Source: an uncultured Clostridia bacterium
Lineage (GTDB): Bacteria; Bacillota; Clostridia; TANB77; CAG-508
Direction of reading: 5' to 3'
Assembly: GCA_934122085.1 (NCBI GenBank)
Contig: CAKOVS010000003.1
Location: 17,734-81,733 of the forward strand
Length of the DNA stretch: 64,000 nt
Part shown: positions 42,527 through 63,974 of the stretch, one piece after another
Position numbering within the stretch: the first letter of the stretch is position 1
Layout: each line of letters starts with the position of its first letter
Notes under the pieces: generated by a model
Databases searched by the model: none
Told to the model about the DNA's origin: nothing
Seen by the model: only the letters and a program-made list of their open reading frames with translations
Position numbers and translations under genes: made by a program

Positions 42527-42645
42527 CATACCTCCTCTGTTTATAATAATACAATAAAAAATAAAAAATGTAAATTAATTTCATAAATTTGTAAAAAAAA
42601 TATATACATGATATAATAAGACAAATAATAAAAATGGAGGAAGTT

Positions 42646-45036
42646 ATGGATAAAACAAAATTATTAAACTTATCTATTTCTACAAGAATTATTTCTCAAT
42701 TAGGAGAACAACTTATATCAGACGAATTAGTGGCACTTATGGAATTAATTAAAAATGCATATGATGCGGATGCAACTAAAGTTACAATAAAGGTTGATAC
42801 AAAAGCTGAAACATCACACGGTATTGGAATGATAAAGATAGAAGATAACGGAAATGGAATGACACCATCTATTATTGAAAATAGTTTTTTAAGAATATCT
42901 ACAGGATTTAAGGAAGAATATAAAATTTCACCTTACTTTAAAAGACTAGTTCTTGGAAAAAAAGGTTTAGGAAGATTAGCCTTTAATAGATTAGGAAAAT
43001 ATATAAATGTATATACTACTCCTAGAGTAGACAGAATCAGTGATGAGTTAGTAGGCAATTTAGAGGGATTTAACGAGTTCAAACTTTTTGTTGATTGGGA
43101 GAGTTTATATGTAGATCAAGATTTTAATAAAATACAGGCAACCTTAGAAAGGCATATTAATCCAGAACCAACTTATGGAACGAAAATACAAATTTTAGGA
43201 ATTAAAAATACAAATTTCTGGAAGTTGGATAAAACTCAAAGGCAAAGATTAAAAAATGAAATATTTGGAATGATAAATCCTTTTACCAAGAACAAGGAAA
43301 GTAGATTCGAAATATATTTATATATTGATGGTGAGAAGTTTACCACAGAAGAACTAGATGAAGATTTAATTAGAAAAATAAGTGATGTTAGCGCTAACTT
43401 TAATCTAAATTCAAATTGGATATTATCTTTAGATATAAATAGAAAAGAAAAATATATTAATAATAGAATTGTAAGTACTAAAAAGAATAGAGAAAATGCA
43501 TCAACTAAATTAGTTTTACAGGAAAAAAATATTGATCCTAAAATATATAATATCCATTATGAAATTGACTTAAAAAACTCAAAAGAAATAAGAAGCATAC
43601 TTCCAAAAGTTGGAGATATTACATTTAGTACCAAAAATAATGAATTATGTTTTCCAGGAATTTTAAGTGGGGCTATTTATGCTACTGACTTAGGAAATAA
43701 AAAAGAAATTATAAAAAATCTAAATGCTGATAATATTAAAACAAATAGTGATTTTGATAATTTGTGGGAGCAAGCAAATGGAATATTTGTATTTAGAAAT
43801 GAATTTAGAATACTACCATATGGAAAAAATGATTGGTTAGATTTTACAAAAATGAGTCAAAGATTAAAAAGTAATATTTATAAAGAGCATACTATAGCTG
43901 GCTATATTAATTTAGATGGTGAAACTAGTGAAAACTTAGAAGAACAAACTAATAGGCAAGGATTTATTGAAGATGAATATGGAAACAACTTCTTTAAAAT
44001 TATTAAAGATATAATTGCTGTTACTTTGGTTAATGAAGACATTAAATTAAGAGATGGATTTGACTTAAAAACAAAAGAGGAAAAAGGATTTTTATACTCT
44101 AAAAATAATATGATAAAGTATAAAATGGAAATTTCGCAAGAGAAACAAAAAGAAAATAAGAAGGAAGAATTAAAAATATCAATCAATAATTTAAAGGCTA
44201 ATACAAGTAATATTGCTGAAATAGAAAATATATCACATATAACTGATGAGTTCTTTAAATTAGATTCAAAGGTGGAAAAAAAGAATGAACAAGAAAGGGA
44301 AATTTTACAAAGGCAAATAGATGAAATAAAAGAAATTGCCCCAATGGTTGGTCAAGCAATTATAATCGAGTCAATGACTCATGAATTAAATAGAATAGAA
44401 GGAAATATTAAGCAATATTCAAAAAATAGTTTAGATATTGCTTATGAGTTGGATGATACTTTTAATGGTAAAAATAAGTTAATTAATAATCAACATTCTA
44501 TTATAGATGAGACTGTATTTATGAGGGCACAATTAAATCATTTAGAGCCTACATACAGAAGTCAAAAAAATACTGTGGAAAATATAGATATCAAAAAACT
44601 TTTAGAGGAATCTTATAAAACTGATGGTCCTATGGCAATAAAAGCAAAAAATAGCAATATTGATGTACAAATATCAGGAAAAAATTTTACTATAAAAGCA
44701 AATAGAGGATATATTATTACTATATTTGATAATTTATTTTTAAATTCATTACATTGGATTAATTATGAGGAAGTTAATAAAAAAGAAATATTAATACACA
44801 TAGATGAAAAAGGTTATATTTATTTTTGGGATACAGGAAATGGAATTCATCCAGATATAGAAGATTCTTTATTTAATCCTTTTACTACAATGAAGAAAAA
44901 TGGAAGAGGTTTAGGTTTATATATAGTAACTGAATTACTAAGTCAAATGAATTCAACGATTGAACTAGATGAAGATAGAAAAAACGGAAGATTATACAAA
45001 TTTAAGATTAATTTAAGTAATTTATTGGAGGATTAG
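42646..45036 (+). CDS. Cytoplasmic fusion protein: N-terminal GHKL (HATPase_c_3, MORC/MutL-like) ATPase + C-terminal histidine kinase core (HisKA + HATPase_c)
   Basis: N-terminus LMELIKNAYDADATKV...IEDNGNGM...GKKGLGRLAF (Bergerat fold); C-terminus H-box MTHELNRIEGNI, N-box FDNLFLNSLHW, G1 DTGNGI, G2 GRGLGLYI; no TM segments; GGAGG RBS. Confidence 0.6.
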   Translation: MDKTKLLNLSISTRIISQLGEQLISDELVALMELIKNAYDADATKVTIKVDTKAETSHGIGMIKIEDNGNGMTPSIIENSFLRISTGFKEEYKISPYFKRLVLGKKGLGRLAFNRLGKYINVYTTPRVDRISDELVGNLEGFNEFKLFVDWESLYVDQDFNKIQATLERHINPEPTYGTKIQILGIKNTNFWKLDKTQRQRLKNEIFGMINPFTKNKESRFEIYLYIDGEKFTTEELDEDLIRKISDVSANFNLNSNWILSLDINRKEKYINNRIVSTKKNRENASTKLVLQEKNIDPKIYNIHYEIDLKNSKEIRSILPKVGDITFSTKNNELCFPGILSGAIYATDLGNKKEIIKNLNADNIKTNSDFDNLWEQANGIFVFRNEFRILPYGKNDWLDFTKMSQRLKSNIYKEHTIAGYINLDGETSENLEEQTNRQGFIEDEYGNNFFKIIKDIIAVTLVNEDIKLRDGFDLKTKEEKGFLYSKNNMIKYKMEISQEKQKENKKEELKISINNLKANTSNIAEIENISHITDEFFKLDSKVEKKNEQEREILQRQIDEIKEIAPMVGQAIIIESMTHELNRIEGNIKQYSKNSLDIAYELDDTFNGKNKLINNQHSIIDETVFMRAQLNHLEPTYRSQKNTVENIDIKKLLEESYKTDGPMAIKAKNSNIDVQISGKNFTIKANRGYIITIFDNLFLNSLHWINYEEVNKKEILIHIDEKGYIYFWDTGNGIHPDIEDSLFNPFTTMKKNGRGLGLYIVTELLSQMNSTIELDEDRKNGRLYKFKINLSNLLED

Positions 45037-46869
45037 ATGGAAAACGAAAATATAGAACAAATTAAACAAAAATTAGCATTTATGAATATTAATAAAATAA
45101 TCTCTATAGATAATGAATGGTCTCAAAATAATAATATAGACTTAAGCAAAGATATAATAGATTTTATCGAAGAACTACATCCAAAAAATGAGAAAGAACT
45201 CTTACGTAAAATATCTAATAAAGGCTACTTAACTTTAAAAAATGCATATGATGATAATGATGAAGAATTAATAAAACTGATAAATTCAAAAAATGATATG
45301 CAAAATCAATTACCACCCCATTTAGAAAAATTAGATAAAATTTTAGAAGCATTACAATTAAAAGGAATAGCTGTAGATAAAATAGATAAATACAAACCAT
45401 CTATTTTCCAAAAGTATAATACGGAAAATTGTCTTTTTATTCTTGATAAGGAAATGGATGAAGTTAGTAATAAAGATATTATTAAAGAAAGTATTCCAAA
45501 TATAATAGAAGAATCGGATAAAAATGGTGTAAATCATTTAATAATTGTATATTCAAGTAATATAAGCGATGAATATGTAAATAACTCAAAAAAATTAGCC
45601 TATGTACAACAAAGAATAACATCTCCTGGAAAGAGTAATTTTTATATTTATAAAATGTTTGCAATAGAAAAAAATCTAGATACAAAATTGGATCAAGAGC
45701 TAAATTCAAAAATATCAGATTGTATTTATGGTGATGCTTTATATCACTATATGGTATTAGAAAAGAGCAAAACAGATAAAATTTATGATTCAATTTGTGA
45801 AATAGATAATGAGGAAATATCAAGAATATCAGAGGAGAATTTTATAGAAGGAAATAATATTACTGATAGTATTAATACTATCAAAAAGGCTATAACAAAA
45901 ATGCATGAAAATGAACAATTTGATAAAGAAAAAAATATACTAGAAAAATTTAATTTTTATCAAAAAGATAAAATCAAAAATTTCGTTTCACATAATAGTA
46001 CATTAACAACAAATAGTCAATATAGAAAATATCGTGAATCTCAGGATATAGAATTTGTAGAAAATATATTGCAAAGCAATATATCAATTTGGGAAAATAT
46101 AGATTATTCTGTTAACAAATTTTATAAAGACATATCTACAGGAGATATATTTAAAACAAAATTACTAAAAGAGAATAAAGAACAATATCTACTAATTATA
46201 GAAAATGCGTGCGATTGTATACTTCGAAGTCAAAAAAATATAAATGATATATCAAGAAAAAATAAAACTGGAAGTATAAAGGTATTATTATTAGAAAAAT
46301 ATGATATAATAGAATCAGAGAAAAAACAAATAGCTAAACAATTTGGCAATGGAGAAATTATTTTTCCTATAAAAGAACATAAAACTTATTATTTAAAGAA
46401 CACTGGAAAAGTTTTTTCAATTCCAGAATTTTTATTAGATTTATGTACCCTAAACGAAAAAGGTAAATGTTTAACAAATTATAGTAAGGAAATAATACAA
46501 AAATATAAAAATTATTATTTTGAAAAGTATATGGACATGCCACAAACAATTGAAAAGATAGAAAATTTCAAAAAATATTTACTAATAGATAATTCCCATA
46601 TAAAGAAAGGATTAGAATTGCAAGAAGAATCAGAAGAAAATATTATAAAACCATTTCAAATAGAGAAAGATAAAGATGGAAATCCATGTATGGAACGAAT
46701 AGGAAGATTAGACTATAATATTACTTTAAGAGTATGTCAGAAAAACTACTATGAAATAGAAAAACAAATATTTAATACATTTGAGAGTCAAGGAATTCTT
46801 AATAAATTGAAAGGACAACAAAAAACTACAATTGCTTCTATAGAAAAAATATTTGGAATAAAAAAGTGA
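45037..46869 (+). CDS. 610-aa hypothetical protein, likely translationally coupled to the upstream GHKL-kinase gene
   Basis: Start codon overlaps the upstream stop (GATTAGATGG); no recognisable motifs; Cys pair CDC...C. Confidence 0.4.
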   Translation: MENENIEQIKQKLAFMNINKIISIDNEWSQNNNIDLSKDIIDFIEELHPKNEKELLRKISNKGYLTLKNAYDDNDEELIKLINSKNDMQNQLPPHLEKLDKILEALQLKGIAVDKIDKYKPSIFQKYNTENCLFILDKEMDEVSNKDIIKESIPNIIEESDKNGVNHLIIVYSSNISDEYVNNSKKLAYVQQRITSPGKSNFYIYKMFAIEKNLDTKLDQELNSKISDCIYGDALYHYMVLEKSKTDKIYDSICEIDNEEISRISEENFIEGNNITDSINTIKKAITKMHENEQFDKEKNILEKFNFYQKDKIKNFVSHNSTLTTNSQYRKYRESQDIEFVENILQSNISIWENIDYSVNKFYKDISTGDIFKTKLLKENKEQYLLIIENACDCILRSQKNINDISRKNKTGSIKVLLLEKYDIIESEKKQIAKQFGNGEIIFPIKEHKTYYLKNTGKVFSIPEFLLDLCTLNEKGKCLTNYSKEIIQKYKNYYFEKYMDMPQTIEKIENFKKYLLIDNSHIKKGLELQEESEENIIKPFQIEKDKDGNPCMERIGRLDYNITLRVCQKNYYEIEKQIFNTFESQGILNKLKGQQKTTIASIEKIFGIKK

Positions 46870-46954
46870 TTTTTACTTGTTTTTTTAAGCGAACTAATAT
46901 GAAGTGAACCCAAATTATTAGACAAAAAAGTTTAATAAGGAGGGTTCATTTTCT

Positions 46955-47467
46955 ATGTCAAAATATTCAAATGAGTTAAAATTAAAAGTTGCAAAATATT
47001 GTGTAGAACAATATCATGGATATTCAGATGCAGCAAAATATTTTAATATTCCAAGCGAGACTACAGTATATCAATGGGTTAGGAGATATAAAGAAAAAGG
47101 AGTAGCAGGATTATTAAAAAACAAAAAAACTTCATATAGTGGAGAATTTAAACAAGATGTGGTAGAATATATGCATAAAAACCATTTATCAGCAACAGAA
47201 ACAGCTATAAAATTTAATTTAGCCAATCATACTATAGTATTAAAATGGGAACGTATATATTATGAGGAAGGGCCACAAGCATTGTTTAGAGAACGACGTG
47301 GTAGAAATAAAAATATGAGTTCTAAACCAAGAAAAAAGAAATTATCTAAAGAAAATAAAGAAGATTTAATAGAAGAAGTTCAAAGATTAAGAATGGAAAA
47401 TGCATACTTAAAAAAATTGCAAGCCTTAATTCAGGAAAGGACAAAGCCAAAACAAGAGAAAAAGTAA
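46955..47467 (+). CDS. IS3-family transposase OrfA (HTH + leucine zipper)
   Basis: HTH N-terminus, LRMENAYLKKLQALIQE zipper. Confidence 0.8.
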   Translation: MSKYSNELKLKVAKYCVEQYHGYSDAAKYFNIPSETTVYQWVRRYKEKGVAGLLKNKKTSYSGEFKQDVVEYMHKNHLSATETAIKFNLANHTIVLKWERIYYEEGPQALFRERRGRNKNMSSKPRKKKLSKENKEDLIEEVQRLRMENAYLKKLQALIQERTKPKQEKK

Positions 47468-47508
47468 TAGTAATAGATGAATTAAGGCATGAATTTAAAT
47501 TAGAGACT

Positions 47509-48312
47509 TTGTTAAAGTTTGCAGAAGTAAAAAGGAGTACTTTTTATTATCAATTAAATAGAATGCAAGTACCAGATAAATACAAAGAAATAAAAGAACA
47601 AATAACATCTATATATCACGAAAATAAAGGAAGATATGGTTATAGAAGAATTACATTAGAACTTCATAATAGAGGATTTATAATTAACCACAAAACAGTT
47701 ATAAGATTAATGAGAGATTTAGGATTACAATGTTTTATTAGAGTTCAAAAATATAAATCTTATAAAGGTGAAATAGGAAAAATATGTGATAATCTTCTAA
47801 ATAGAGAATTTGAAGCTGAAGAACCAAATCAAAAATGGGTTACAGATGTAACAGAATTTAAAGTACATAACGAAAAACTGTATTTATCACCTATAGTAGA
47901 TTTATTTAATGGAGAAGTAATTAGTTTTAACTTATCAAGACATCCGGTATTCGCACAAGTAGTAGATATGTTAGAAAAAGCTTTTAATAAAATACCAGAT
48001 AATACAAATTTGATATTACATTCAGATCAAGGATGGCAGTATCAGATGAAGCAATATCAACACTTATTAAAAGAAAAAGGCATTAGGCAAAGTATGTCAA
48101 GAAAAGGTAATTGTTTAGATAATTCATTAGCAGAGAATTTCTTTGGTTTATTAAAATCAGAATTATTTTATATGAAAGATTATAAAACGATAGAAGAATT
48201 AGAAAAAGATATAATAGAATATATAGATTATTATAATAATAAAAGGATAAAAGGCAAACTAAAAGGAATGAGCCCTGTTCAATACAGAACTCACTCCTTA
48301 GAAGTTGCTTAG
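47509..48312 (+). CDS. IS3-family transposase OrfB (DDE integrase core)
   Basis: ...VSRSTFYY-like start, DDE residues (VTDVTEF ... HSDQGWQY ... NSLAENFF); open -1 frame extends back to the A7 slip site. Confidence 0.8.
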   Translation: MLKFAEVKRSTFYYQLNRMQVPDKYKEIKEQITSIYHENKGRYGYRRITLELHNRGFIINHKTVIRLMRDLGLQCFIRVQKYKSYKGEIGKICDNLLNREFEAEEPNQKWVTDVTEFKVHNEKLYLSPIVDLFNGEVISFNLSRHPVFAQVVDMLEKAFNKIPDNTNLILHSDQGWQYQMKQYQHLLKEKGIRQSMSRKGNCLDNSLAENFFGLLKSELFYMKDYKTIEELEKDIIEYIDYYNNKRIKGKLKGMSPVQYRTHSLEVA

Positions 48313-48398
48313 TACCTAATCAAAAAATGTCCAATTTTTTGGGTTCAGTACATAACTCGCCTTTTTATATAAGAAATAACTACTGTAATTTTTCACAT

Positions 48399-50162
48399 CT
48401 AATTATTTTCTAAATCAAATATTAGTTTTTTTAAATCAATAATATAGATTGGCGTTGCTTGATTTGAATAATTTAAAATATAATTAGTTTCTGGTAATAT
48501 CATTTCATTTTCTTTGAACAAATTAGATTTATTAATTGTTGTTAAAGATATATCTGCTTTATTCATTTCTTGAATATCTGTATCATTCACGTCCCAACAA
48601 ACAATGTAATCTATTTCATTTGCATATTTTTCGTTGTTTTCAAAATCTCTAATTATATTTCTTAGATGTGATTTAAATTCTATGCATATAAAATGATTAT
48701 TATATTCTGCATAAAGATCATACTTTTCTCTATATCCTGATATTATTGGTTTAACCTTATCTATTTTTCCCATTCCTACAAGTTCATAAAAAATTGCTGC
48801 TACACTTGCCTCTTGCTCAGATGGTAATTTTTTAAAATTAATTATTGAATTATTTAATGCTGGCAAACTATCAATTTTCATTTTTATTTCATCTCTATCC
48901 CAAATTGGATTATTGTCTATATCTGGTTCTCCTGCAACATACTTTGAAATGTATTTTGTATAATCACTAAATATTTCTTTTGCATATTTTTTATAAATAT
49001 TTTTGATACTTCCATTTATTGATTTTCTTCCTATATCAAATTTTAGCATATCATCTTCAAAAATCATAAATAAATTTGGCCAATATCCAGTTTTACCTGT
49101 AAGTGGAGGCTCGATTATAATTCCTGTTGGCATTCCTTTTACTGATGTGTATATCCCTGATTGATGTGTTGTGAAAAATTTATCTTGTAAAATGTCTTCA
49201 TTGTCTATATCATTTTCATCTAATAATCCATCTTTGCACGAAATCTTTTTCCATAATGTTCTTTGTGGTACATAACATGTCCAAAATTTTATTGTTCTCA
49301 CATTGTTATGTTTATATTCACCCATTTTATATATAATTTTATTTTTTAATTTATTTCTTTTTTCCTGATCTGATGATGTTGGATTTTCTTTTAGCCATTT
49401 TTTAAAAACTTCTAAATCAAACAAATCCTTTTTTTCCAAACTTTCTGTAGGTATCCAATATTTATATTCCAATTTTTCTTCCTTGGTATTTTCAGCTAAA
49501 TCAGTATATATCAATGTAACATCAATATTTGAATTATTATCAAATAAGTTCAAAACATTTCCAATAGCAGTTTTAGTCCTTATTACATACTTTATAGAAT
49601 TAAAATCTAATTCAAATAATTGCTGATTTTCAATCCCTTCAACACATATATCTGTTCCTATGAATCCTTCTTTATTTTCTGAAGATAAATTTAAGCAAAA
49701 ATCTTCATCACTATCACTATTCTTCCATGTTTTTGCTCCAGGTATTTTTACTACAAATTTTTCAGTAGATTTATCAGTTGTTGTCTTCATAATAAAATTG
49801 TCACTCGAAAACAAAACAAATTTTAGTCCTACTCCTTTTTCTCCAATTGTTTCTTTATCATCTTCTTTATCAGTAGAAAATGGTGTTAATAAAACTGGTA
49901 TTTTTTCCTTTTCTATCCCTATTCCCGTATCAATAACTTGTATTGATCTTTTATGAGCATTAATAATTATTTTTATGCTCCCCTTTCTTTCTTCCGTTTT
50001 ATTAATTGCATCTACACTATTTTGAACCAATTCAGCAATTATATCCCAAAAGTTATTATAGCTATCTTCTATCCCCTTTATGCTTTTCCTTATAATAAAG
50101 TTATTAGGCATTAAAAATGGTATTTTTTCAGTATCCATAATATTTACTATTTCCCCTTTCAA
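48399..50162 (-). CDS. MORC-like GHKL ATPase with C-terminal restriction-endonuclease-fold (DUF3883-like) domain
   Basis: ELVQNSVDAI ... IDTGIGI ... GEKGVGLKF Bergerat motifs; C-terminal D...(ICIEFK) PD-(D/E)xK-like pattern. Confidence 0.6.
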   Translation of the reverse strand: MKGEIVNIMDTEKIPFLMPNNFIIRKSIKGIEDSYNNFWDIIAELVQNSVDAINKTEERKGSIKIIINAHKRSIQVIDTGIGIEKEKIPVLLTPFSTDKEDDKETIGEKGVGLKFVLFSSDNFIMKTTTDKSTEKFVVKIPGAKTWKNSDSDEDFCLNLSSENKEGFIGTDICVEGIENQQLFELDFNSIKYVIRTKTAIGNVLNLFDNNSNIDVTLIYTDLAENTKEEKLEYKYWIPTESLEKKDLFDLEVFKKWLKENPTSSDQEKRNKLKNKIIYKMGEYKHNNVRTIKFWTCYVPQRTLWKKISCKDGLLDENDIDNEDILQDKFFTTHQSGIYTSVKGMPTGIIIEPPLTGKTGYWPNLFMIFEDDMLKFDIGRKSINGSIKNIYKKYAKEIFSDYTKYISKYVAGEPDIDNNPIWDRDEIKMKIDSLPALNNSIINFKKLPSEQEASVAAIFYELVGMGKIDKVKPIISGYREKYDLYAEYNNHFICIEFKSHLRNIIRDFENNEKYANEIDYIVCWDVNDTDIQEMNKADISLTTINKSNLFKENEMILPETNYILNYSNQATPIYIIDLKKLIFDLENN

Positions 50163-50173
50163 TTTCGTTTATT

Positions 50174-51568
50174 TCAATTTTCTATCAAATAATAATCTTT
50201 TAAATCCTTTTCAGATATATCCAATCCTTTTTCATGTAATAATTCTTTTCTTTTTAAATATAGATTGTGCAATGCTGGTTTCCTTTCAACATCTTCGCCT
50301 AAGTGTACTAATCTATGACAATGTGGACACAATGTTACATAATTTTCAACAACTTCTATGCTATTTTCAAAATCATTTCCAACTGCTCTAGGAATCAAAT
50401 GGTGTACTTCCACATAATTTTTATGTGATTCTTTGCTTGTAAAATATTGACATCCATAAAAATCTTCCAGCTCACATCTGTAGTTACTATTAACTTTAGC
50501 AAGTTTTTTCAATACAGTACTTACTCTGTTGTATTTTTCAACTGCATACATATCAGTATCGTCTATTTTTTCATTTAAGTCTACATCTTGTTCATTAACT
50601 TCTTTTTCATCTCTAAAGTTTAAAGAATACTGTATGATATCAAATAATTCTTCATATATAAGTTTGTACACTGCTTCATGATCTGCTATAAAACTTTTTA
50701 TTTTCTCTATATCAATATTTATATATATTTCATTATATCTGAATAGTGCATAATCTATAAAATCTTCATAGTTTTTATATGAATTGTTTAGTAAAATAAG
50801 AGAAAAATATTGTATTTTCGCATTATCAACTAATGTGGATTTTACATATGAACCTGTTGATTTATATTTATATGATATTGTACATGTTTCTTCTTTTGTA
50901 ATTTCTCTATTTCTAGGTCGACTTTGCACATATTCTTTTAATTCTTTCTTTTCAGCATCGCTTGCATTAATAAACATTTGTAAAAAATCAATGTCTTCAA
51001 AATCTTTATAAAAGGAATCAAAGTATAAGTAATCATTCATAAATATTTCTTCTGTACCAATATCGCAACTATCAATAAAGTTTTTTAAGATACTTATATA
51101 TTTTTCTTTACTTACACCTCTTTTTTCCATAAAGTTTACAATTTCATTGCTTCTTACATCTATATAATTAGGAATATTAGCAAAATATCCATTTAGAATT
51201 GTTAAATATATAAGTATCCAACGCTCTTCTTTTGAAAAATCACTATCTAACATATCACCAAAGGCTAATCCTTTTTTATTTCTATAATATTTGTTTGATG
51301 CCCTAGAAAAAATTTTTGATTTTAACATATTAACTGTATGCTGTTTTTCTTTTTCTTCCCCATGATTTTCATGATGAATCCATTGGTCTCTTCCTATATT
51401 TTCAATTTCTTTAAAAACATCATAACCTGTCTCAAATACCCATAAATTTCTATAATTTGTATTTAAAAAATATAGTATTTTTCCATTTGAATTTTCACCT
51501 GTAGAACAATAAGCATCATACCATCTATTATTTCTACATAAATCTTTATATATATCTACTAAATTCAT
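50174..51568 (-). CDS. HNH nuclease-domain protein (paralog 1)
   Basis: C-terminus CELEDFYGCQYF...HHLIPRAVGNDFENSIEVVENYVTLCPHCHRLVH = HNH with two Cys pairs. Confidence 0.7.
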   Translation of the reverse strand: MNLVDIYKDLCRNNRWYDAYCSTGENSNGKILYFLNTNYRNLWVFETGYDVFKEIENIGRDQWIHHENHGEEKEKQHTVNMLKSKIFSRASNKYYRNKKGLAFGDMLDSDFSKEERWILIYLTILNGYFANIPNYIDVRSNEIVNFMEKRGVSKEKYISILKNFIDSCDIGTEEIFMNDYLYFDSFYKDFEDIDFLQMFINASDAEKKELKEYVQSRPRNREITKEETCTISYKYKSTGSYVKSTLVDNAKIQYFSLILLNNSYKNYEDFIDYALFRYNEIYINIDIEKIKSFIADHEAVYKLIYEELFDIIQYSLNFRDEKEVNEQDVDLNEKIDDTDMYAVEKYNRVSTVLKKLAKVNSNYRCELEDFYGCQYFTSKESHKNYVEVHHLIPRAVGNDFENSIEVVENYVTLCPHCHRLVHLGEDVERKPALHNLYLKRKELLHEKGLDISEKDLKDYYLIEN

Positions 51569-51643
51569 CTTTTTTCCCCCGTTAATATTGTATCATACAT
51601 TATATAAAAAATAAATAAAAGAGGAAAATGTTTCCCCTTTTAT

Positions 51644-53107
51644 TTATTCTTCAATATTATAATAATCTTTTAATTCTTTAAGCTTTATATTAATCCCTTT
51701 TGACACTAATTGTTCTTTTCTCTTTGAAAATAAATATTCAATATCTCTTACTCTATCTTCGTCTTTTGCATGATGCAGCCTTCTGTGGCAATTAGGACAT
51801 AACGCAACAAGGTTAGCAATAACATCTATACTATTTTCGAAATCATTACTGAATTCCATTTGTACAAGATGATGTGCTTCTAAGAAATTTTTATTAGATG
51901 CTTTTGATGTGAAATATTGACATTTATTTCTATCACCTAGTTCGCAAAGATATCCTGATCTTCTTTTAGCAGTTTCCTTTTTTAATGAACTGCTTTTGCA
52001 TTTTTTTATTTCTTCAAATTCGTTTTCTCCTATATCAGTTCTTGGTTCTGGGCCTTCAACCTCTGAAAACGAATTGATTTCATTTTCGCTAATTACATCT
52101 TCTATATTATTTTCTTTACTAATGTTTAACACATTATAATATATATCTTGAAATATATCTCTATTACCATCTATAATACTTCTTACCAAAGCTCTATTAT
52201 AATTTTCTATTTTCTCATAACTCTCTAAAATAATATCTATAAAATTATTAAATGAAACCTCTCCAATATTTCTTAAATTTTCAGAAATATACAATGTTTT
52301 AGCATCATCTATCAACATGTTTTTATCGTAATTTCCTTGATTAGGAATTTTCTGGAATTTTTTAGCTATTATACATTGATTTTCTTTTTCTCCATTGTTC
52401 CAATTAAATCTTATATACGAATATAATTCCATTTTTTCTTCAGCAGAAGCTTTAATATATTCTGGTATAAAATTTATACTATATCCTTTTTTATTATATG
52501 GTTTAAAAAAAGATTCAAAATATACAAAATCATATTTTAATAATTCTTCAAAATCTCTATCTTGGCTTTCAATTATTTTTTTTGCTGTTTCTATAATTAT
52601 ATCTTCTGTTAATCCCTGCTCTATTAAAGTATCGATAATTTCAAAACTTTTATTTATAATGTAATTTACTTTAACATCAAAATATGCATCTAATAAAAGA
52701 ATATATGATAAAATCCATATATCTTTTTCTTTTAAGTCTCTATTATTTAATATTTTTTCTATAAATAATCCTTTAGGATTAGGAAAATATAAATCTTCCT
52801 CATCTACATTTTTTCTGTTAAATATTTTTGCTTGTCTCATTCTAGTTGTATATATTTTATGTTGTTTTTGTTTATATGAACTATTTTTAGGCCATTCGCT
52901 ACTTTTTAATCCTGCAACAGATTTGAATTTTTTATAATCATTAATAAAACTTATATTATATCTAAAATTTGTGTTTCTAAACCAATATACGTTTCCTAAT
53001 GGTTTAATTCCTAGTCCTTTTATTTTTTTTGTAGTTCCACACCTTGAATACAAACTATAAATTTTAGAATCTTCAGACATTTTTTTATAATATTCCAAAA
53101 TAGTCAT
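51644..53107 (-). CDS. HNH nuclease-domain protein (paralog 2)
   Basis: CELGDRNKCQYF...HHLVQMEFSNDFENSIDVIANLVALCPNCHRRLHH; N-terminal region also homologous to paralog 1. Confidence 0.7.
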   Translation of the reverse strand: MTILEYYKKMSEDSKIYSLYSRCGTTKKIKGLGIKPLGNVYWFRNTNFRYNISFINDYKKFKSVAGLKSSEWPKNSSYKQKQHKIYTTRMRQAKIFNRKNVDEEDLYFPNPKGLFIEKILNNRDLKEKDIWILSYILLLDAYFDVKVNYIINKSFEIIDTLIEQGLTEDIIIETAKKIIESQDRDFEELLKYDFVYFESFFKPYNKKGYSINFIPEYIKASAEEKMELYSYIRFNWNNGEKENQCIIAKKFQKIPNQGNYDKNMLIDDAKTLYISENLRNIGEVSFNNFIDIILESYEKIENYNRALVRSIIDGNRDIFQDIYYNVLNISKENNIEDVISENEINSFSEVEGPEPRTDIGENEFEEIKKCKSSSLKKETAKRRSGYLCELGDRNKCQYFTSKASNKNFLEAHHLVQMEFSNDFENSIDVIANLVALCPNCHRRLHHAKDEDRVRDIEYLFSKRKEQLVSKGINIKLKELKDYYNIEE

Positions 53108-53110
53108 AAA

Positions 53111-54130
53111 TTATTCCTCCACCTTACAAACAAATAATCTTTCTTTATGTTTGTCTAAATTTGTTTTTCCTGAATTAAAAAATTTATAATCTGTTTCATA
53201 AACGCTTACTTTTCCCTTTTTTTCAAGTATTTGCATCATATCATTATATGTTATTGAATTTACAGATGATGTACTTTTTGCTTCATATGTGTTATTATAT
53301 GATACAATAATATATTTAGCATTAATATTTTCTATCAAATCTGTGAACACTGTTTTTGCATTTGCCTTACAGTATTCACTCATTATATTTTTTCTTTCCA
53401 TTTTTTTGGCTTTATTATATACTTTTGGTTTTTTCCATTGTGCAACATTTTCTAATAAATGATAAAAATTAGCATATTGTCTAGCATTATATGGCGGATC
53501 TATATACATTACATCTACTTTTATTTTTCTAACTAAACTATTAGCATCTTCATTATAAATATGCGAATTTGAATTATATAATTTAATATTTAAATTACTT
53601 ATTTGTAAGTTCTTATATTCAGGTTCTTTATTTAAAAAACTTTCATAGTGACCCACTGTATTAGATATTCTATCCATTGAATATAATAAACATGATATTA
53701 AAATATAGTATTCTCTATCATTAATTTCTTTATTTAAATATCTATTTTCAATATCTTCCCTAACATATCCAATTTTTTTAGCATCTTTATAATGATAATA
53801 ATTTCCACTAAAGTTATCAGAAAAATAATTATCCTGTATTTTTTCAACATCTATTCTATTATAGTCATCTATAATTTTTATAATTTTTTCTTCCTCATAT
53901 TTTTCGTTACTTAACAATGCTTTATATATAACAAAATTTGAGAACAATAAATCATTAACGTATATTTCTTTGCCTTTATTCAAAAAGTATTCTGCAACAA
54001 CTCCTGTCCCTGAAAACACATCTCCAAAGGTACAGAATCTTATTTTCTCTTTTTTTATGGTATCATCTATAAATTTTAAAAGTTTACTTTTATTTCCTAT
54101 ATATCTTCTATTTTCTATATTTAGTCCCAA
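53111..54130 (-). CDS. Dam-like (D12 class) N6-adenine DNA methyltransferase
   Basis: YIGNKSKLL ... FGDVFSGTGVV (motif I) ... MYIDPPYNA (motif IV). Confidence 0.8.
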   Translation of the reverse strand: MGLNIENRRYIGNKSKLLKFIDDTIKKEKIRFCTFGDVFSGTGVVAEYFLNKGKEIYVNDLLFSNFVIYKALLSNEKYEEEKIIKIIDDYNRIDVEKIQDNYFSDNFSGNYYHYKDAKKIGYVREDIENRYLNKEINDREYYILISCLLYSMDRISNTVGHYESFLNKEPEYKNLQISNLNIKLYNSNSHIYNEDANSLVRKIKVDVMYIDPPYNARQYANFYHLLENVAQWKKPKVYNKAKKMERKNIMSEYCKANAKTVFTDLIENINAKYIIVSYNNTYEAKSTSSVNSITYNDMMQILEKKGKVSVYETDYKFFNSGKTNLDKHKERLFVCKVEE

Positions 54131-54132
54131 CT

Positions 54133-55086
54133 TTATTCCTCCACTTTGTAATTTGTAATTAGTACTTCTTCTTCTAATCCATCTCTATTCTTTTTATTAT
54201 AACTAGCTGATCTATAATGATATTCTATTTCATTTATAAAGTATTTATCTTTATTCTTTTCTAGCCAGTTATATAAAATTTCATTTTTTATATTTAATTT
54301 TTTCTTTTGTAATACATTTGATAAAGCAAATTTTATTCCTTTTTTGTTTAATTTATCTAACAGATTTAATAATTCTCTTTCTTCTTTTTCATTCCATCCT
54401 GCATTTTCATTATATACTGCATCAGTAATAAGGTAAGGAGGATCAGCATATACAAATTCCACTTCTTTTAGGTCTTTAATGTCTATTTTCTTAAAATCTT
54501 TACAGACGAATTCAATTTTCTTTTCTTTACATATATCAATATATTTTTTTAATTTTTCTCTGTTATTCTTATTCATGTCTGTCTTGCCTACTGGTAAATT
54601 AAACTCACCTTTTGAATTAAATCTAATATCATTATTAAAAGCGTAAACCATAAGTAAATATAGATATAAATTTGCCTTATCTGTTTTTTTATCCTTTAGT
54701 TTATTGTAATCATTTTTTAATCGATTATATCCTTCAAAATTATATTTTTTTAATCCATTATTTCCTTCTACATATTGTCTATAATATGAATAACCATATT
54801 TATATGAATTTGATAATCCATACTTTTCAATTAATGTATCTATCTTGTTTATTAAAGTTGAATAATCTTGTTTTTTTAAAAACATAAGTAAATTTATTAC
54901 TTTAGGATTATTATCTATAGCAATAATTTCTTCTGCAATAAGATTTATCGCAACAGTAGCTCCTCCTGTAAATAAGTCAACACATTTATTTACATTTTTA
55001 GGGAAACATTTAATAAACTGTGGTAAAATTCTGTATTTATTTCCTGTGTAATTTATTGGTGATTTACAAACTTGTGCTAAACACAT
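54133..55086 (-). CDS. Dam-like (D12 class) N6-adenine DNA methyltransferase (second)
   Basis: YTGNKYRIL ... VDLFTGGATVAINL ... VYADPPYLIT. Confidence 0.8.
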   Translation of the reverse strand: MCLAQVCKSPINYTGNKYRILPQFIKCFPKNVNKCVDLFTGGATVAINLIAEEIIAIDNNPKVINLLMFLKKQDYSTLINKIDTLIEKYGLSNSYKYGYSYYRQYVEGNNGLKKYNFEGYNRLKNDYNKLKDKKTDKANLYLYLLMVYAFNNDIRFNSKGEFNLPVGKTDMNKNNREKLKKYIDICKEKKIEFVCKDFKKIDIKDLKEVEFVYADPPYLITDAVYNENAGWNEKEERELLNLLDKLNKKGIKFALSNVLQKKKLNIKNEILYNWLEKNKDKYFINEIEYHYRSASYNKKNRDGLEEEVLITNYKVEE

Positions 55087-55087
55087 A

Positions 55088-55315
55088 TTATTTTTTCTCC
55101 TTCTTTTTATTTTCATATTGCATTACATCTTGTATATTGCAATTTAAATATTTGCATATTTTATCTATTACAACCAATGATACTATTTTGTCTGAATTTA
55201 ATTTTGCCATAGTTGCAGAAGATATCTGCAAAATATCTTTTAATTCCCCACATGATAAATCTTTATCAATTAATAATTTTCGTAACGGCTTATAAGATAT
55301 CATTTTGCCCCCCAA
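55088..55315 (-). CDS. XRE-family HTH protein (candidate R-M controller / C-protein)
   Basis: 75 aa, LSCGELKDILQISSATMAKLNSDKIVSLVVIDKICKYLNCNIQDV; immediately upstream of the MTase genes. Confidence 0.6.
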   Translation of the reverse strand: MGGKMISYKPLRKLLIDKDLSCGELKDILQISSATMAKLNSDKIVSLVVIDKICKYLNCNIQDVMQYENKKKEKK

Positions 55316-55483
55316 TCTATATTTAATATCCTAAAGTTTTTATTTATTTTCTTATATTTTTTATTTTAATACTAAATTATTATTTTGTAAAGGCTTATTT
55401 TTATTTAAGATATAAAATATACATACGTAATAAAGGGATTGGGATTTCATCCCATTGAATAGAATTTGAGCAAAGCAGAAATT

Positions 55484-55571
55484 TCGGTCTCCCAATTTCA
55501 GTGCTTGCTGGGACAAGAAATCATTTTTTCGGTCTCCCAAATTCATTGCTTGCTAGGACAAAAAATTGACT
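55484..55571. repeat. Two tandem imperfect ~44-bp direct repeats, each containing a near-palindrome (tcccaa...ttggga-like)
   Basis: tttcggtctcccaatttcagtgcttgctgggacaagaaatca / ttttcggtctcccaaattcattgcttgctaggacaaaaaattga; lies between the replication module and the R-M block. Confidence 0.5.
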
Positions 55572-57820: not shown

Positions 57821-58471
57821 ATGGAAAGAAAGAATAAAATCGGTATTTCTTTTGCTTCTTCATGTTTTTCTCAAATATTCATTCATACTTCAGGAGCATA
57901 CTTAAGCAAACCTATCAGCAAAAATAATAATAAGTATTTTGCAAATTTAAGAAATGTTCCTCCTGATGAAAGATTTGGAAAATTAGTTCTAGAACTTGAG
58001 AAAGCTAATTCTGAATCAGAACGAGAAAAAATACTAAGTGAATTAAACGCAATTACTGAAATAGATAAGACAATTGAATCAAAGCCATTAACTTTTAAGG
58101 ATAATATTGAAAAATTAAAGGGTTATATTGTTTTCGAGCCAACTACTGCTGTTGAACATTATGATCTTTCTCTTTTAGATTTCATAAGTTATGATTTTGA
58201 TGTATTTAATGATTATTTATTGTTTTTTATAAATTTCTTTGATTATTTTATAGATAAATTAGATGATAAAGATATTAAGTATATTGAACTAGATACTTTA
58301 TACCCTGTAAAAGAAATAGTAGAATTAGCCCAAAAATATTATGATAAAGAAAAAGATAATTTAATATACTATCAAAATATTTTCAAAAAATGTATTAATT
58401 TTGTTTATGGTATTGATAATTCTTTTGACATGAAATATTTAACTTATAAACAAATATTTTTTTTTGTATAA
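57821..58471 (+). CDS. Hypothetical protein
   Basis: ORF track only. Confidence 0.3.
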   Translation: MERKNKIGISFASSCFSQIFIHTSGAYLSKPISKNNNKYFANLRNVPPDERFGKLVLELEKANSESEREKILSELNAITEIDKTIESKPLTFKDNIEKLKGYIVFEPTTAVEHYDLSLLDFISYDFDVFNDYLLFFINFFDYFIDKLDDKDIKYIELDTLYPVKEIVELAQKYYDKEKDNLIYYQNIFKKCINFVYGIDNSFDMKYLTYKQIFFFV

Positions 58472-59063
58472 TCAAATAAATCCAAATACTTTTTCAGAAT
58501 TTAAACAAGATTTTCATTCAACAGATTTATTAGATTATCAATATAGCAGTTTTCCTATACAAAAAGATCTTATTAAATTTTATGATGTTGATGCTTTAGT
58601 TTCTGCTATCGAAGAAGTAGATCCTACTGGAAGAAAACTTCATAGTCTTCAACAATTTGAAACTACTAATTTATTTACAAGTTTTTATATTACACTATTT
58701 AATGTAGTAGCAATAAATGATAAACTCATTAAAATATGTGGTAATTGTAAAAGATATTTTATAACACACAAAGAAACAGTAACTTATTGTGATAGAATTA
58801 TTGAAGACAAATTAACCTGTAAAGATATTGGAAATAGAGAATATCAAAAAAGGAAATTAGAAAATGACCCTACCTATGATAGATATAGAAAACTTGGAAG
58901 TAAAAAACAACTTAGACGTGATAGAAATCCAGAAATAGAAATATATAAACAAGATCTTGAACAATACAGAAAAATAGGAAAGCAAATGTATAAAGATTTT
59001 TACTCTGGTAAAATAACTCATGAAGAATTTGAGGAATGGGTAAATGAACAAGATAAAAAATAG
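58464..59063 (+). CDS. Hypothetical protein with Cys4 zinc-ribbon
   Basis: CGNCKRY...CDRI...C. Confidence 0.3.
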   Translation: MYNQINPNTFSEFKQDFHSTDLLDYQYSSFPIQKDLIKFYDVDALVSAIEEVDPTGRKLHSLQQFETTNLFTSFYITLFNVVAINDKLIKICGNCKRYFITHKETVTYCDRIIEDKLTCKDIGNREYQKRKLENDPTYDRYRKLGSKKQLRRDRNPEIEIYKQDLEQYRKIGKQMYKDFYSGKITHEEFEEWVNEQDKK

Positions 59064-59082: not shown

Positions 59083-60399
59083 TTATTTTATTCTTACTAA
59101 TATTTCCTTGCTTTTGGCTATACACACTCCATTATTTACTACAAAGGCTTGAACCCAGTGAGTTCCCGTATATGATGTACTTTCGTGTCTACCATAGGAA
59201 TAAATATTTGATGTTTCAAATCCACCTCTTAAGCAATTATTTTCTTTTGCTTCTTCTCCAGTATTAACGACTTGCCAAAATATTTTAGTGTTACTTGAAA
59301 ATGCTGCTGCACCTACAACTGTAAAATCAATATTTACACTTTTATCTAATATACTATCTCCTTCTGGATTATAATCTATTAAATAATTATATCTATCATA
59401 GCACTTTACTTTAACATCTACTAATGAAATATTACTTCCTTCATACCAATCTGGCTTTGCTTTATAAGGTACATTAAAAAAACTATTATATTTGTCTTTT
59501 ATTGCTTCTAATAATGAATTGCTTGCCATTTGTTCCTTAGGAAATTCAGTACCAAGTATCTTTCTCCAACTTTCATTAGAACAATTATATTTTTCTAGCA
59601 TGTTTATATGATTTTCTAGTTTATTATAGAAATACTTAAAATCTTCAAACTCATAACAATCTGATAAATTATCTGTTAATATACCTGGATCTGCTATAAA
59701 TGGTTTTGTTCCATTTTCAATATAAGGTCTAAAAGTACTTACTATATTTTTCATGGTATTAAGTACAATGTCCTCATACGTATTATTACAATCATATAAA
59801 TTATCAGCAATAATTTTTTCAAGTGTTATTCCTTTCGGATATTTAATATTTTGGGGACAATTATTTTTTCTCCACCATTTAAAAATTTTTACTATTCTTA
59901 CAAATTTATCATGATTTTCTTGGTTAATTCTCGTACACCATTCTATATGACCTTTAGGATTTGTCCTTTTCCATTTTCCATCGTTCTTGTTTCCTATTTT
60001 ATACATTGAAAAAATCTTATCTTCTATCATTGGCACAACATCTATTTCTGTACCTTCCATTTCTATTCCTATTGATCTACTTTGTTTTTTTACATTATCG
60101 TATTTTTCTTTACAAACTTTGTATAATTCATCTAGTACTTCTTTTGAATCATATTGTTCTGTATAATTGGTTACTACAACAATATCAACATCTGTCTTTC
60201 CATCATATTTAGTTGGTCTAATACATGTATGCTTTGCATATGAACCAGTTAAAAATGTCTCTATTACTTTTTCTTTATATACATCATGAGATTCCAGAAA
60301 ACCTCTTAAATTTGTTTGTATACTCGAAACATATTTCTTGGTTGTTGGAGATGGTTCAATATTATGTAGAAACTCTTCAAAATCTTTTTCTTTACTCAT
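59083..60399 (-). CDS. Pol-beta-superfamily nucleotidyltransferase (SMODS/CD-NTase-like)
   Basis: GS...DVD pattern: TFLTGSYAKHTCIRPTKYDGKTDVDIVVV, then a third acidic residue (EIDVVPM); 438 aa. Confidence 0.5.
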   Translation of the reverse strand: MSKEKDFEEFLHNIEPSPTTKKYVSSIQTNLRGFLESHDVYKEKVIETFLTGSYAKHTCIRPTKYDGKTDVDIVVVTNYTEQYDSKEVLDELYKVCKEKYDNVKKQSRSIGIEMEGTEIDVVPMIEDKIFSMYKIGNKNDGKWKRTNPKGHIEWCTRINQENHDKFVRIVKIFKWWRKNNCPQNIKYPKGITLEKIIADNLYDCNNTYEDIVLNTMKNIVSTFRPYIENGTKPFIADPGILTDNLSDCYEFEDFKYFYNKLENHINMLEKYNCSNESWRKILGTEFPKEQMASNSLLEAIKDKYNSFFNVPYKAKPDWYEGSNISLVDVKVKCYDRYNYLIDYNPEGDSILDKSVNIDFTVVGAAAFSSNTKIFWQVVNTGEEAKENNCLRGGFETSNIYSYGRHESTSYTGTHWVQAFVVNNGVCIAKSKEILVRIK

Positions 60400-61147
60400 C
60401 TGTTCTAAAATCCTCCTCCGTATTAAAATTAAATGAATTTAATGCATTTGCATATTTTCTAATATCAATTGCAGCTACTGTTCCAATTTCATGTAATTCA
60501 TTATTAAGATTAAAGAATAACCCTAATATCGATTCATCTGCACTTGTTTTTTCAAATTCTATACTACCATCTTTCTTTTTTATACTAGTAAATGAATAAC
60601 CATTAATTGCACATCCCAAGTCGATATTCCTATTGTTTTTTAAATGATTAATAATTGTTTCATCATTTGCTATATCCATATTAGTAGCCAATATGATTCC
60701 TAATATATGTGTTAAATTTCTTCCTGCTGTTCTTCTTCCTGCACATGTCATACCTCTTGATGATCTTTTTAACTCTTTTACAGACTGAATTTTTTCATTA
60801 GCATATTCTATATTTCCTTTATCGATATTAGGTTTAACTTCAACAATAGCATAAATTGCTTCAGCTGGAATGAATTTTTCTCCTGTATTACTAACTAATA
60901 CAAAAGGTGAGTATAAAGCATCATAAATAATCAAATCAATTTGTTCACTTACATTTCCTTCATAGTCAATTACATATCCTTTATCCACTCCATATTTTCC
61001 TGGTAGTATTTCTTTAAGAAATTTTTTCCAACTTTCTTCAGAATTATCACCATTTCCTGTAGGATGTGGTATTGTTCCACTTTCTCCTAAAAATGCTGCT
61101 AATGTATTTTGCTTTGCAGCTAATAAATTATATAATTGATTTTTCAT
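60392..61147 (-). CDS. PD-(D/E)xK (restriction-endonuclease-fold) protein, candidate effector
   Basis: EQIDLIIYD ... AIYAIVEVK (D...E-x-K spacing about 27 aa); 251 aa; overlaps the NTase start by 8 nt. Confidence 0.4.
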   Translation of the reverse strand: MKNQLYNLLAAKQNTLAAFLGESGTIPHPTGNGDNSEESWKKFLKEILPGKYGVDKGYVIDYEGNVSEQIDLIIYDALYSPFVLVSNTGEKFIPAEAIYAIVEVKPNIDKGNIEYANEKIQSVKELKRSSRGMTCAGRRTAGRNLTHILGIILATNMDIANDETIINHLKNNRNIDLGCAINGYSFTSIKKKDGSIEFEKTSADESILGLFFNLNNELHEIGTVAAIDIRKYANALNSFNFNTEEDFRTDE

Positions 61148-61411
61148 CTTCTTTCCTCCTATAATAAAAAATAGTCTTAATTCCTTAAGACCATCTTATT
61201 CTAGTTGTTTCATTATAATATAACAGAACATATTGGTCCTCCTTTCCAGAACCAGACAAATGTTTCGTATTTACAAATGCAACAAATTGTATTATAATAT
61301 AAATGTATGTATGATCTGGGGAGATTAATATATACACTTATATTGGACCAACATTCGCTTGGTTCTTTTTTTTATTTAAGTTTGTTTTACGACTAACTCA
61401 TAAAAGTCAAT

Positions 61412-62949: not shown

Positions 62950-63974
62950 ATGTACATTGAAGGAAAATCTCTTAAATTTGAAGACTTTGTAGAAATATGG
63001 AAAAGAGATTATGGCGAAAAAGAATTAGCACCTTCAACATACAAAAGATATATTGGAATACTAGAAACTAGAATTATACCTTTCTTTAAGCATTTTCATG
63101 TTGATAAAATAAAACCAACAGATATAATGCAGTTCTACGACTTATTAAGTAAAGATACTCAAATAGTAAGAAGAAAAGACAACAATGGTAAAAAACAGGT
63201 AAACCACTTTCATCAAAAAATATTGTTGAACATCACAGACTTCTTCGTGCTATGTTACAAAAAGCAGTGTATTGGCAACTAATACTTTCAAATCCTGCAG
63301 AACGTGTTCAAGCACCTAAAACTAAAAAGCCTAAAAGAAAATACTATGATGATGAACAAAGTAAAATATTAGTTTCAAATTTAATGGATCTTTCTCAAGA
63401 ACAAATTAAATATAAAACTGCAATCATCTTAACAGTATTTACTGGAGTTAGACTTGGAGAGCTTATGGGATTAGAATGGAACGATATTAATTTCAATGAT
63501 GGAATTGTAAGCATTAATCGTTCTAGTCAGTATTTGGCAGACAAAGGTGTATTTACCAAAACACCTAAGACAGAAAGTTCTATTAGAGAAGTCGGAATAC
63601 CAGATTTCGTTGTTTCATTACTTGAAGAATATAAATCATGGTATGATGAACAAAAAGAGTTATATGGCGAATTATGGACTGATTCTAATAGGTTATTTGT
63701 ACAAGCAGATGGTAAGCCAATGCATCCTTCTACTATTAGTAAATGGTTTGTAAAATTTGTAGAACAAATAGGACTACCTGTAATTAACTTCCATGGGTTA
63801 AGGCACACAAATGCGACCTTACTCATAGCACAAAATATTGATGTTCCAATTGTAGCAGCAAGACTTGGACATGCACAGATTACAACAACGCTTAATTTTT
63901 ATGTGCATCCTATTATTGCACATAATAAAAAAGCAAGTTATGTTTTAGAAAACTTGCTACTACCAAGAAATTAG
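62950..63974 (+). pseudogene. Tyrosine recombinase/integrase interrupted by a frameshift in an A6 tract
   Basis: Two overlapping ORFs (62950..63282, 63252..63974). Adding one A at 63196-63201 gives a continuous integrase (...DNNGKKTGKPLSSKNIVEHHRLLRAMLQKAVYWQLI...); C-terminus HGLRHT...LGHAQITTTLNFYVH catalytic R/H/Y. Confidence 0.7.

Follow-up and report, generated by a model that had tools for sequence, protein, structure and literature searches.

In a 64,000-nt stretch of contig CAKOVS010000003.1 from an uncultured Clostridia bacterium (hereafter 'the window'), a block of six co-oriented open reading frames (ORFs) occupies positions 48399–55315 of the minus strand. Comparison with related loci leads us to read this block, with reasonable though not full confidence, as two independent defence units that lie next to each other on an integrative mobile element: a Type II restriction–modification (R-M) cassette with interchangeable HNH nucleases and a stand-alone GHKL nuclease. 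The initial annotation of this DNA, made from the sequence alone, had described six co-oriented genes with the domains considered here. The ORF list and domain scans confirmed all six and their domains; three start codons were corrected.

Read along the minus strand, the block starts with a helix-turn-helix (HTH) regulator of the Cro/C1 type (55088..55303; 71 aa; HTH_26, E 1e-14). It is followed by two methyltransferases, M1 (54133..55086; 317 aa; PF02086, E 6e-31) and M2 (53111..54130; 339 aa; PF02086, E 4e-29), by a predicted restriction endonuclease, HNH1 (51644..53107; 487 aa; HNH, E 3e-5), by its paralog HNH2 (50174..51568; 464 aa) and by a predicted GHKL ATPase-nuclease (48399..50138; 579 aa; HATPase_c and HATPase_c_3, E ~1e-10). 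Starts of the HTH, M1 and GHKL genes were re-set from ribosome-binding sites and from gene calls in homologous loci. Residue numbers of the GHKL protein refer to the 587-aa ORF unless stated otherwise (its ATPase Glu and nuclease Lys are E36 and K489 in the 579-aa numbering). Purifying selection was seen on every methyltransferase and HNH gene compared with orthologues (ratio of non-synonymous to synonymous substitution rates, dN/dS, 0.04–0.17); for the HTH and GHKL genes the ratio is uninformative, each being nearly identical to its sole comparator. No near-identical DNA was returned when the block was searched by megablast in collections of plasmids and phages, and Rfam and tRNA scans detected no RNA genes in the window.

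The argument for two units is carried by the gene orders observed in related loci (numbered with the prefix L). Cassettes with HNH1 as the sole nuclease (M1-M2-HNH1) were found in L010-12, where they are chromosomal and located next to tyrS. Cassettes with HNH2 as the sole nuclease were found in L087 (HTH-M1-M2-HNH2) and in L086 (M2-HNH2 followed by a GmrSD-type gene). The HNH1-HNH2 tandem recurs in L013 (M1-M2-HNH1-HNH2-GmrSD), in the window and L014-16 (HTH-M1-M2-HNH1-HNH2-GHKL) and in L082-85; in this last group L082 has the order HTH-M1-M2-HNH1-HNH2 up to the contig end, and L085 contains the 3′ part of the window arrangement. In every locus with upstream sequence available, M2 is accompanied by M1 and the pair is directly followed by HNH1 or HNH2, in several genomic settings; methyltransferase identity across the cassette loci is 81–96%. 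This adjacency and co-conservation of nuclease and methyltransferase genes bears out the earlier R-M reading of the HTH, methyltransferase and HNH genes. Homology to the window ends at the HNH1 stop codon in L010 and at the HNH2 stop codon in L013, and the slot after HNH2, filled with a GmrSD-type gene in L013 and L086, is empty in L010-12 and L087. Since the methyltransferase pair can be accompanied by HNH1, by HNH2 or by the tandem, a single paralog of either kind seems to be sufficient. As a separate observation, the HNH2-only cassette of L087 ends (3825–4148) beside a sequence that, by eye only, resembles the 3′ terminus of a tRNA or tmRNA gene (…GGGGGATTCGAGTCTTACCCCCGCAACCA); such an end would be a typical integration site.

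M1 and M2 both pass the Pfam PF02086 cutoff as D12-class N6-adenine DNA methyltransferases, and their translations contain the catalytic motifs FTGGA/DPPY (M1) and FSGTG/DPPY (M2). Both had been called Dam-like. The label suits M1, which scores 137 bits against the dam subfamily model TIGR00571 (cutoff 114.85) and has T4 Dam as its nearest solved structure (E 2e-35); it does not carry over to M2, for which no solved structure was matched. The two proteins resemble each other at the level of motifs only (DPPY) and do not form a paralogous pair. Each has its counterpart in one half of fused methyltransferase models (E values 1e-57 to 1e-93): in the 722-aa PADLOC model PDLC03292 M2 aligns with positions 78–407 and M1 with positions 418–718, and in the 646-aa model PDLC03287 M2 corresponds to the N-terminal half and M1 to the C-terminal half. 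An asymmetric target site is therefore suggested, with M1 and M2 each predicted to methylate one of its strands. FokI-type methyltransferases are fused two-domain D12 adenine methyltransferases. The match of M2 and M1 to the halves of PDLC03292 and PDLC03287 likens the pair to these enzymes and fits one methyltransferase per strand; the cassette differs from them in having the domains as separate genes and in opposite order, M1 first.

We also tried to derive the recognition site from word depletion; given 64 kb of sequence, counts taken on both strands and tests of hundreds of words, no site could be assigned. GATC occurs in the window about half as often as expected (128 observed versus 262 expected, Markov model, both strands counted), and GGATG/CATCC is mildly depleted (42 versus 69), a difference that is not significant after multiple testing. 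CATG and AGCT are depleted as well. The depletion of GATC, CATG and AGCT hints at other restriction pressure in the host.

HNH1 and HNH2 are full-length paralogs (35% identity, E 4e-76). The earlier claim of two paralogs with C-terminal HNH modules is thus confirmed, with sizes of 487 and 464 aa. The Cys pair, the HH and Asn residues and the CPxCH motif are kept in 11 of 11 HNH sequences (both paralogs and nine homologues), and all HNH residues of HNH2 are intact. HNH1 consists of a new N-terminal region of ∼370 aa, to which relaxed scans of the 11 HNH proteins assigned no Pfam family, and a C-terminal Cys4 HNH domain resembling the HNH domain of McrA (6ghc, E 4e-6). The family is rare: among 5.8 billion proteins we found seven clusters of HNH1 orthologues (74–99% identity) and three HNH2-type clusters, and beyond these about ten clusters similarity is limited to the ∼80-aa HNH domain, shared with McrA-like proteins. 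The dN/dS ratio is 0.15–0.17 for HNH1 and 0.05–0.08 for HNH2. Between the window and L014 the non-synonymous rate dN is 0.096 for HNH1 and 0.013 for HNH2 (0.013–0.024 over M1, M2 and HNH2), a divergence of HNH1 at non-synonymous sites that is roughly four- to sevenfold faster than that of HNH2. At the protein level HNH1 (window 51644–53107, L014 10001–11464) is 82% identical between the two loci, with 95–97% for M1, M2 and HNH2; the changes in HNH1 are concentrated in its N-terminal 200 residues.

The HTH gene accompanies the cassette, at its head, in the window, L014-16, L082 and L087; in the window its ATG at 55303 is preceded by a ribosome-binding site, GGGGGG. The homology of L010 to the window starts at 55162, within the 3′ end of the HTH gene, and we read this 3′ end in L010 as a truncated remnant. 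The HTH_26 domain, the cassette-head position and the co-conservation agree with the earlier proposal of the HTH protein as a candidate controller (C) protein of the cassette. A search for C-boxes in the HTH promoter turned up no more than inverted repeats that are imperfect and AT-rich, along with a direct repeat of 40 nt lying ∼180–260 nt upstream. The two copies of this direct repeat (window 55482–55566, upstream of the HTH gene) are 90% identical, with a 45-nt spacing. In L014 (7547–7626 and 15150–15235) an 88-nt stretch overlapping the repeat has a second, inverted copy after the GHKL gene and ahead of a 98-aa gene. The repeat region may be a shared operator/promoter region or a cassette boundary.

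The first four genes are tightly packed, with gaps of 1 nt between the HTH stop codon and M1, 2 nt between M1 and M2 and 3 nt between M2 and HNH1. A promoter-like site upstream of the HTH gene (TTTACA-17-TAAAAT, 55363..55391, minus strand), a pattern match only from a consensus scan, is a candidate start of an HTH-M1-M2-HNH1 transcript. Directly after the HNH1 stop codon there is a terminator-like hairpin (51609..51649, minus strand) with a 19-bp stem followed by a T run. The window copy, the one that was folded, has an RNA folding energy of −19.5 kcal/mol (z −6.7; 0 of 200 shuffles equally stable), and matching sequence is present in all five aligned double cassettes. Upstream of HNH2 we observed a −10-like element (51587..51597, minus strand; TATGATACAAT in the window, TATGATAAAAT elsewhere) that is kept as TATGATA(A/C)AAT in 8 of 8 aligned HNH2 contexts, including HNH1-less cassettes where M2 is the upstream gene; it is a candidate HNH2 promoter. 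Given the hairpin after HNH1 and this conserved element, HNH2 looks like a separate module with a promoter of its own.

The sixth gene codes for a protein with an N-terminal GHKL domain, an S5 transducer domain and a C-terminal E-D-ExK motif. Its predicted structure is good (mean predicted local distance difference test score, pLDDT, 85.4). In 34 sequences the ATP-binding motifs (E44, N48, D51, D78-x-G-x-G82 and G107-EKGVGL-113) are invariant; the transducer residue K380 is invariant as well, and so are E451, D482 and E495-x-K497 at the C-terminus, located on a predicted alpha-beta-beta-beta-alpha-beta core. A search of the C-terminal domain against a viral library gave GHKL proteins only. The best 120 homologues listed (41–100% identity, mostly 565–620 aa) come from taxa including Firmicutes, Flavobacteria, Campylobacterota, Acidobacteria and archaea, and an exhaustive search at E ≤ 1e-30 yielded 268 clusters (50% identity). 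We analysed gene neighbourhoods at 65 genome loci from many bacterial phyla and archaea and at nine metagenome loci. HNH proteins or matching methyltransferases were present beside the GHKL gene only in L014-16, which belong to the window's own element; the sole exception elsewhere was one weak D12 methyltransferase match in L024 (E 2e-6). When neighbours within 4 kb of the GHKL gene were clustered, no family was common to independent loci. The neighbours vary (DUF4238, reverse transcriptase, DUF3644, FokI-like and Eco57I-like R-M genes), and we read these variable neighbourhoods as defence islands. Such a stand-alone genomic pattern is consistent with single-gene phage protection.

By analogy, the GHKL protein appears to be a self-contained single-gene ATPase-nuclease of the paraMORC3 or VcSduA type. 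The paraMORC3 proteins, described in 2008 by Iyer, Abhiman and Aravind, combine GHKL and S5 domains with an E-D-ExK restriction-endonuclease fold, are often stand-alone and occur mainly in Proteobacteria and Bacteroidetes (PMC2292703). Going by this published description, the GHKL protein has in common with them intact GHKL ATP motifs, the S5 domain and the C-terminal E-D-ExK motif, along with a wide and patchy bacterial and archaeal spread, often with no conserved neighbourhood; it differs in that its branch is common in Firmicutes too. VcSduA (2025) is a GHKL-type (type I-D) single-protein Shedu of Vibrio cholerae, composed of GHKL and PD-(D/E)xK domains; it protects against T1-like phages, and the E27A (ATPase) and K557A (nuclease) mutants lose protection (PMC12137116). 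VcSduA and the GHKL protein share a single-chain layout, with the GHKL ATPase at the N-terminus, a clamp-like domain in the middle and a PD-(D/E)xK or PD-(D/E)xK-like nuclease at the C-terminus. The distance from the motif I Glu to the ExK Lys (E27 to K557 in VcSduA) is ∼77 residues shorter in the GHKL protein. The Shedu domain DUF4263/SduA_C (PF14082) was matched by one of 18 C-terminal domains, at E 0.054, by none of 26 full-length proteins and by none of ten remote members, and a PADLOC scan of the GHKL protein gave no SduA/Shedu match. Since this signature domain was not detected, we liken the protein to VcSduA and do not file it as Shedu.

The junction of the two units carries a trace of recombination. 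When the window is compared with L014, identity is 99.8–100% over the GHKL gene and the final ∼180 nt of HNH2, whereas the methyltransferase and HNH genes are 76–97% identical in 250-nt windows. This contrast points to a recent recombination with a breakpoint near 50350. As this breakpoint falls inside HNH2, the recombination donor would have had the same HNH2-GHKL junction. The evidence thus amounts to stable linkage in one element lineage, not to functional dependence. The position after HNH2 appears to be a swappable slot for defence cargo, which would explain the adjacency of the GHKL gene. GmrSD-type (DUF262/GmrSD_N) Type IV enzymes share with the GHKL protein this position (L013, L086) and the property of being single-gene defence nucleases; their fold and chemistry are unrelated to those of GHKL, and they are relevant here only as evidence for a swappable slot.

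How the two HNH nucleases relate to each other and to the methyltransferases can be explained in other ways. BbvCI and Bpu10I are heterodimeric Type IIT enzymes with two methyltransferases and two paralogous nucleases that have PD-(D/E)xK sites, and both subunits are needed. The cassette, too, has two methyltransferases and two paralogous nuclease genes; it differs in that the sites are of the HNH type and natural cassettes with one nuclease exist. We consider it unlikely that HNH1 and HNH2 form such a heterodimer in the double cassettes, each subunit cutting one strand, with the single-nuclease cassettes as homodimeric ancestors or decayed forms. An HNH domain provides one active site and a double-strand cut needs two, and a heterodimer would also suit the full-length paralogy, the integrity of both active sites, the recurrence of the tandem and the purifying selection on both genes. 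However, complete cassettes that have HNH1 only (L010-12) or HNH2 only (L087, L086) retain the same methyltransferase pair (81–90% identity), so the two nucleases are not always encoded together as in heterodimeric Type IIT enzymes; the genes are separated by the terminator-like hairpin and the promoter-like element of HNH2; and the unequal dN of HNH1 and HNH2 is unexpected for tightly co-evolving subunits. The same cassettes weaken the heteromeric enzyme that the initial annotation had offered as one explanation of the duplicated genes. Its other explanation, two specificities, fares no better, as both methyltransferases stay with either single nuclease and match the halves of fused models. 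The occurrence of one methyltransferase pair beside either sole nuclease therefore argues both against an obligate heterodimer and against two separate methyltransferase–nuclease pairs. We regard as very improbable another reading, in which M1 pairs with HNH1 and M2 with HNH2 to form separate, interleaved R-M systems that recognise different palindromes. The count of two methyltransferases and two nucleases, the lack of relatedness of the methyltransferases beyond motifs and the diverged N-terminal regions of the nucleases would be accommodated, but both methyltransferases are kept under purifying selection with HNH1 alone in L010 (dN/dS 0.07), both remain with HNH2 alone in L087, and the fusion of M2-like and M1-like domains in single models is typical of asymmetric-site enzymes. 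We give hardly any credence to HNH proteins that are non-cognate, i.e. modification-dependent (Type IV, McrA-like) or homing endonucleases beside the methyltransferases. Their best HNH matches outside the family are indeed E. coli McrA (6ghc), a PADLOC Type IV model (E 3e-8) and MrcB-domain HNH proteins, but this similarity spans the ∼80-aa catalytic domain only, the HNH genes directly follow M1-M2 wherever upstream sequence exists (HNH1 by 3 nt), no gene is interrupted, and none of the loci showed an intron or intein context. Both the homing endonuclease and the Type IV readings were rejected on the strict linkage to the methyltransferase pair.

The initial annotation had also proposed a single GHKL+HNH+methyltransferase assembly with the ATPase as a translocase or sensor, and had named co-conservation beforehand as a test of it; the GHKL gene was found without these HNH and methyltransferase genes in more than 60 other loci, and the claim fails on this result. 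Such a six-gene system, with GHKL acting with the HNH enzymes as a translocase, DNA-looping motor or sensor (roles of the kind proposed for MORC and paraMORC proteins of R-M operons), now looks very unlikely to us. It draws on the shared strand, on the junction, which L014-16 and the more distant L085 also have, and on the published finding that paraMORC genes occur near R-M genes, in some cases together with HNH nucleases (PMC2292703). On the other side, no partner of the GHKL family is conserved over those independent loci, the slot itself is taken by GmrSD in L013 and L086 and unoccupied in L010-12 and L087, the GHKL protein has a nuclease motif of its own, and the architecturally equivalent VcSduA works alone. 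Several observations do weigh against two independent units with interchangeable nucleases. HNH2 and GHKL are separated by 35 nt with no terminator between them, and thus are probably co-transcribed in the window. L085 repeats the HNH2-GHKL junction at 88% (GHKL), 79% (HNH2) and 76% (HNH1) identity to the window, and some paraMORC1 genes lie in predicted operons with HNH nucleases (PMC2292703). The single-nuclease cassettes are metagenome contigs, one of which could be a decayed form; the asymmetry of the target site is deduced from the methyltransferase architecture alone; and the structure model of HNH1 (pLDDT 57.6, below 35 in the HNH domain) is too poor for a fold search. As for the PD-(D/E)xK-like C-terminus that had been proposed for the GHKL protein, the E-D-ExK motif is invariant and sits on the predicted core, while sequence support for the fold is weak: the domain gave only weak matches to CoiA_nuc (0.0014), DpnII-MboI (0.03), SduA_C (0.054) and RmuC (0.059), all of which we take to be members of the PD-(D/E)xK superfamily. 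A profile of the same domain searched against PDB sequences found nothing credible, with one chance-level match to an unrelated outer-membrane protein (E 2.3).

The R-M cassette with interchangeable nucleases, placed beside a stand-alone GHKL nuclease, is still the arrangement we favour, and the cassette can be set next to known HNH enzymes. HNH ranks second in frequency among the catalytic classes of Type II restriction enzymes and is established for Type IIS, with examples such as MnlI (CCTC 7/6), HpyAV (CCTTC 6/5) and MboII (GAAGA 8/7); heterodimeric restriction enzymes are covered in the same source (PMC4081073). Like these three enzymes, the cassette nucleases combine a recognition region with an HNH (beta-beta-alpha-metal) cleavage domain and have linked methyltransferase genes. 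Unlike them, they have an N-terminal region of ∼370 aa with no detectable relative outside the ten or so clusters, and there are two paralogous nucleases per methyltransferase pair.

A working scheme can be outlined as follows. M1 and M2 would each modify their own strand of the asymmetric site; an HNH enzyme would read the site via its new N-terminal region, and its Cys4 HNH domain at the C-terminus would cut DNA that lacks the methylation. Timing of expression is probably the task of the HTH protein, in the manner of a controller. HNH1 and HNH2 would be alternative versions, each able alone to serve the same methyltransferase pair, the window having both in tandem; HNH1 would be translationally coupled to M2 and followed by the terminator, and HNH2 would be expressed from its own promoter. 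In the GHKL unit, by analogy with its relatives, ATP-driven dimerisation of the GHKL+S5 module may clamp DNA and gate the E-D-ExK nuclease at the C-terminus against invading DNA.

The block is located on an integrative element with an integrase, an AbiLi-like ATPase, a pair of genes of a cyclic oligonucleotide-based antiphage signalling system (CBASS), an excisionase-like HTH gene, a replication organiser and a DnaC-like gene. An IS3-family insertion sequence on the plus strand (46897..48354, ends approximate; orfA 46955–47467, orfB 47509–48312), not part of the system, marks the end of homology to L014. There an intact hairpin, AAAAAGGCGAGAATTAATCTCGCCTTT, follows the GHKL stop codon; the same sequence of the window breaks after GGCGAG at 48355, where the IS3 element has inserted into this terminator, immediately behind the GHKL stop codon. 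The stretch that separates the integrase from the replication genes (window 59083–62701) contains the CBASS pair (SMODS/AGS_C cyclase and NucC-like effector) together with the AbiLi-like AAA_21 ATPase. L014 (1333–4014) has Thoeris genes (ThsB TIR and ThsA Macro) in the place of the CBASS pair, a position that looks like a second swappable defence slot on the element.

Beyond the IS3 element there is a second GHKL-containing gene set (window 41190–46869). It includes an 800-aa protein with an N-terminal HATPase_c_3 domain (weakly similar to the BbrUII/HgiDII restriction enzymes, E 2e-21) and a C-terminal HATPase_c domain of the histidine-kinase type, an abutting 610-aa protein with no family match and, upstream, a divergently transcribed gene for an N6_N4 methyltransferase of 464 aa. 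Elements of the paraMORC or two-component-like kind, with HEF_HK and Response_reg_2 domains, have been described beside R-M systems (PMC8011034); the gene set resembles these elements, and domain scans did not detect HEF_HK or Response_reg_2 in it. Two further genes of the element are split, in each case into overlapping ORFs: DUF6076 (window 57821–59063) into ORFs of 216 and 199 aa, a single 412-aa gene in L014, and the tyrosine integrase (window 62950–63974) into ORFs of 110 and 240 aa. These frameshifts could be due to either element decay or sequencing errors.

The block illustrates how gene adjacency can mislead: an apparent GHKL+HNH+methyltransferase super-system splits once related loci are compared. 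The series of HNH1-only, HNH2-only and double cassettes provides a natural comparison for the question of why a cassette would have two nucleases for one methylation pattern. If both nucleases are self-sufficient, with diverged recognition regions and one methyltransferase pair restraining the two of them, they may differ in where they cut or in which anti-restriction proteins of phages they withstand. The cassette may also be a source of an HNH enzyme with a new, asymmetric specificity. Large in size and VcSduA-like in layout, the GHKL-nuclease family is nonetheless unflagged by the Pfam and PADLOC Shedu models. Our most far-reaching suggestion is tentative, and we would sooner bet against it than on it: the HNH tandem may represent a 'two restriction enzymes, one methylation mark' design or the first HNH-based heterodimeric enzyme and, separately, the GHKL-nucleases may be a large single-gene defence clade missed in these scans by the Pfam Shedu model and by PADLOC v2.0.0. 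The tandem nucleases and this undetected GHKL-nuclease clade are the parts most worth testing.

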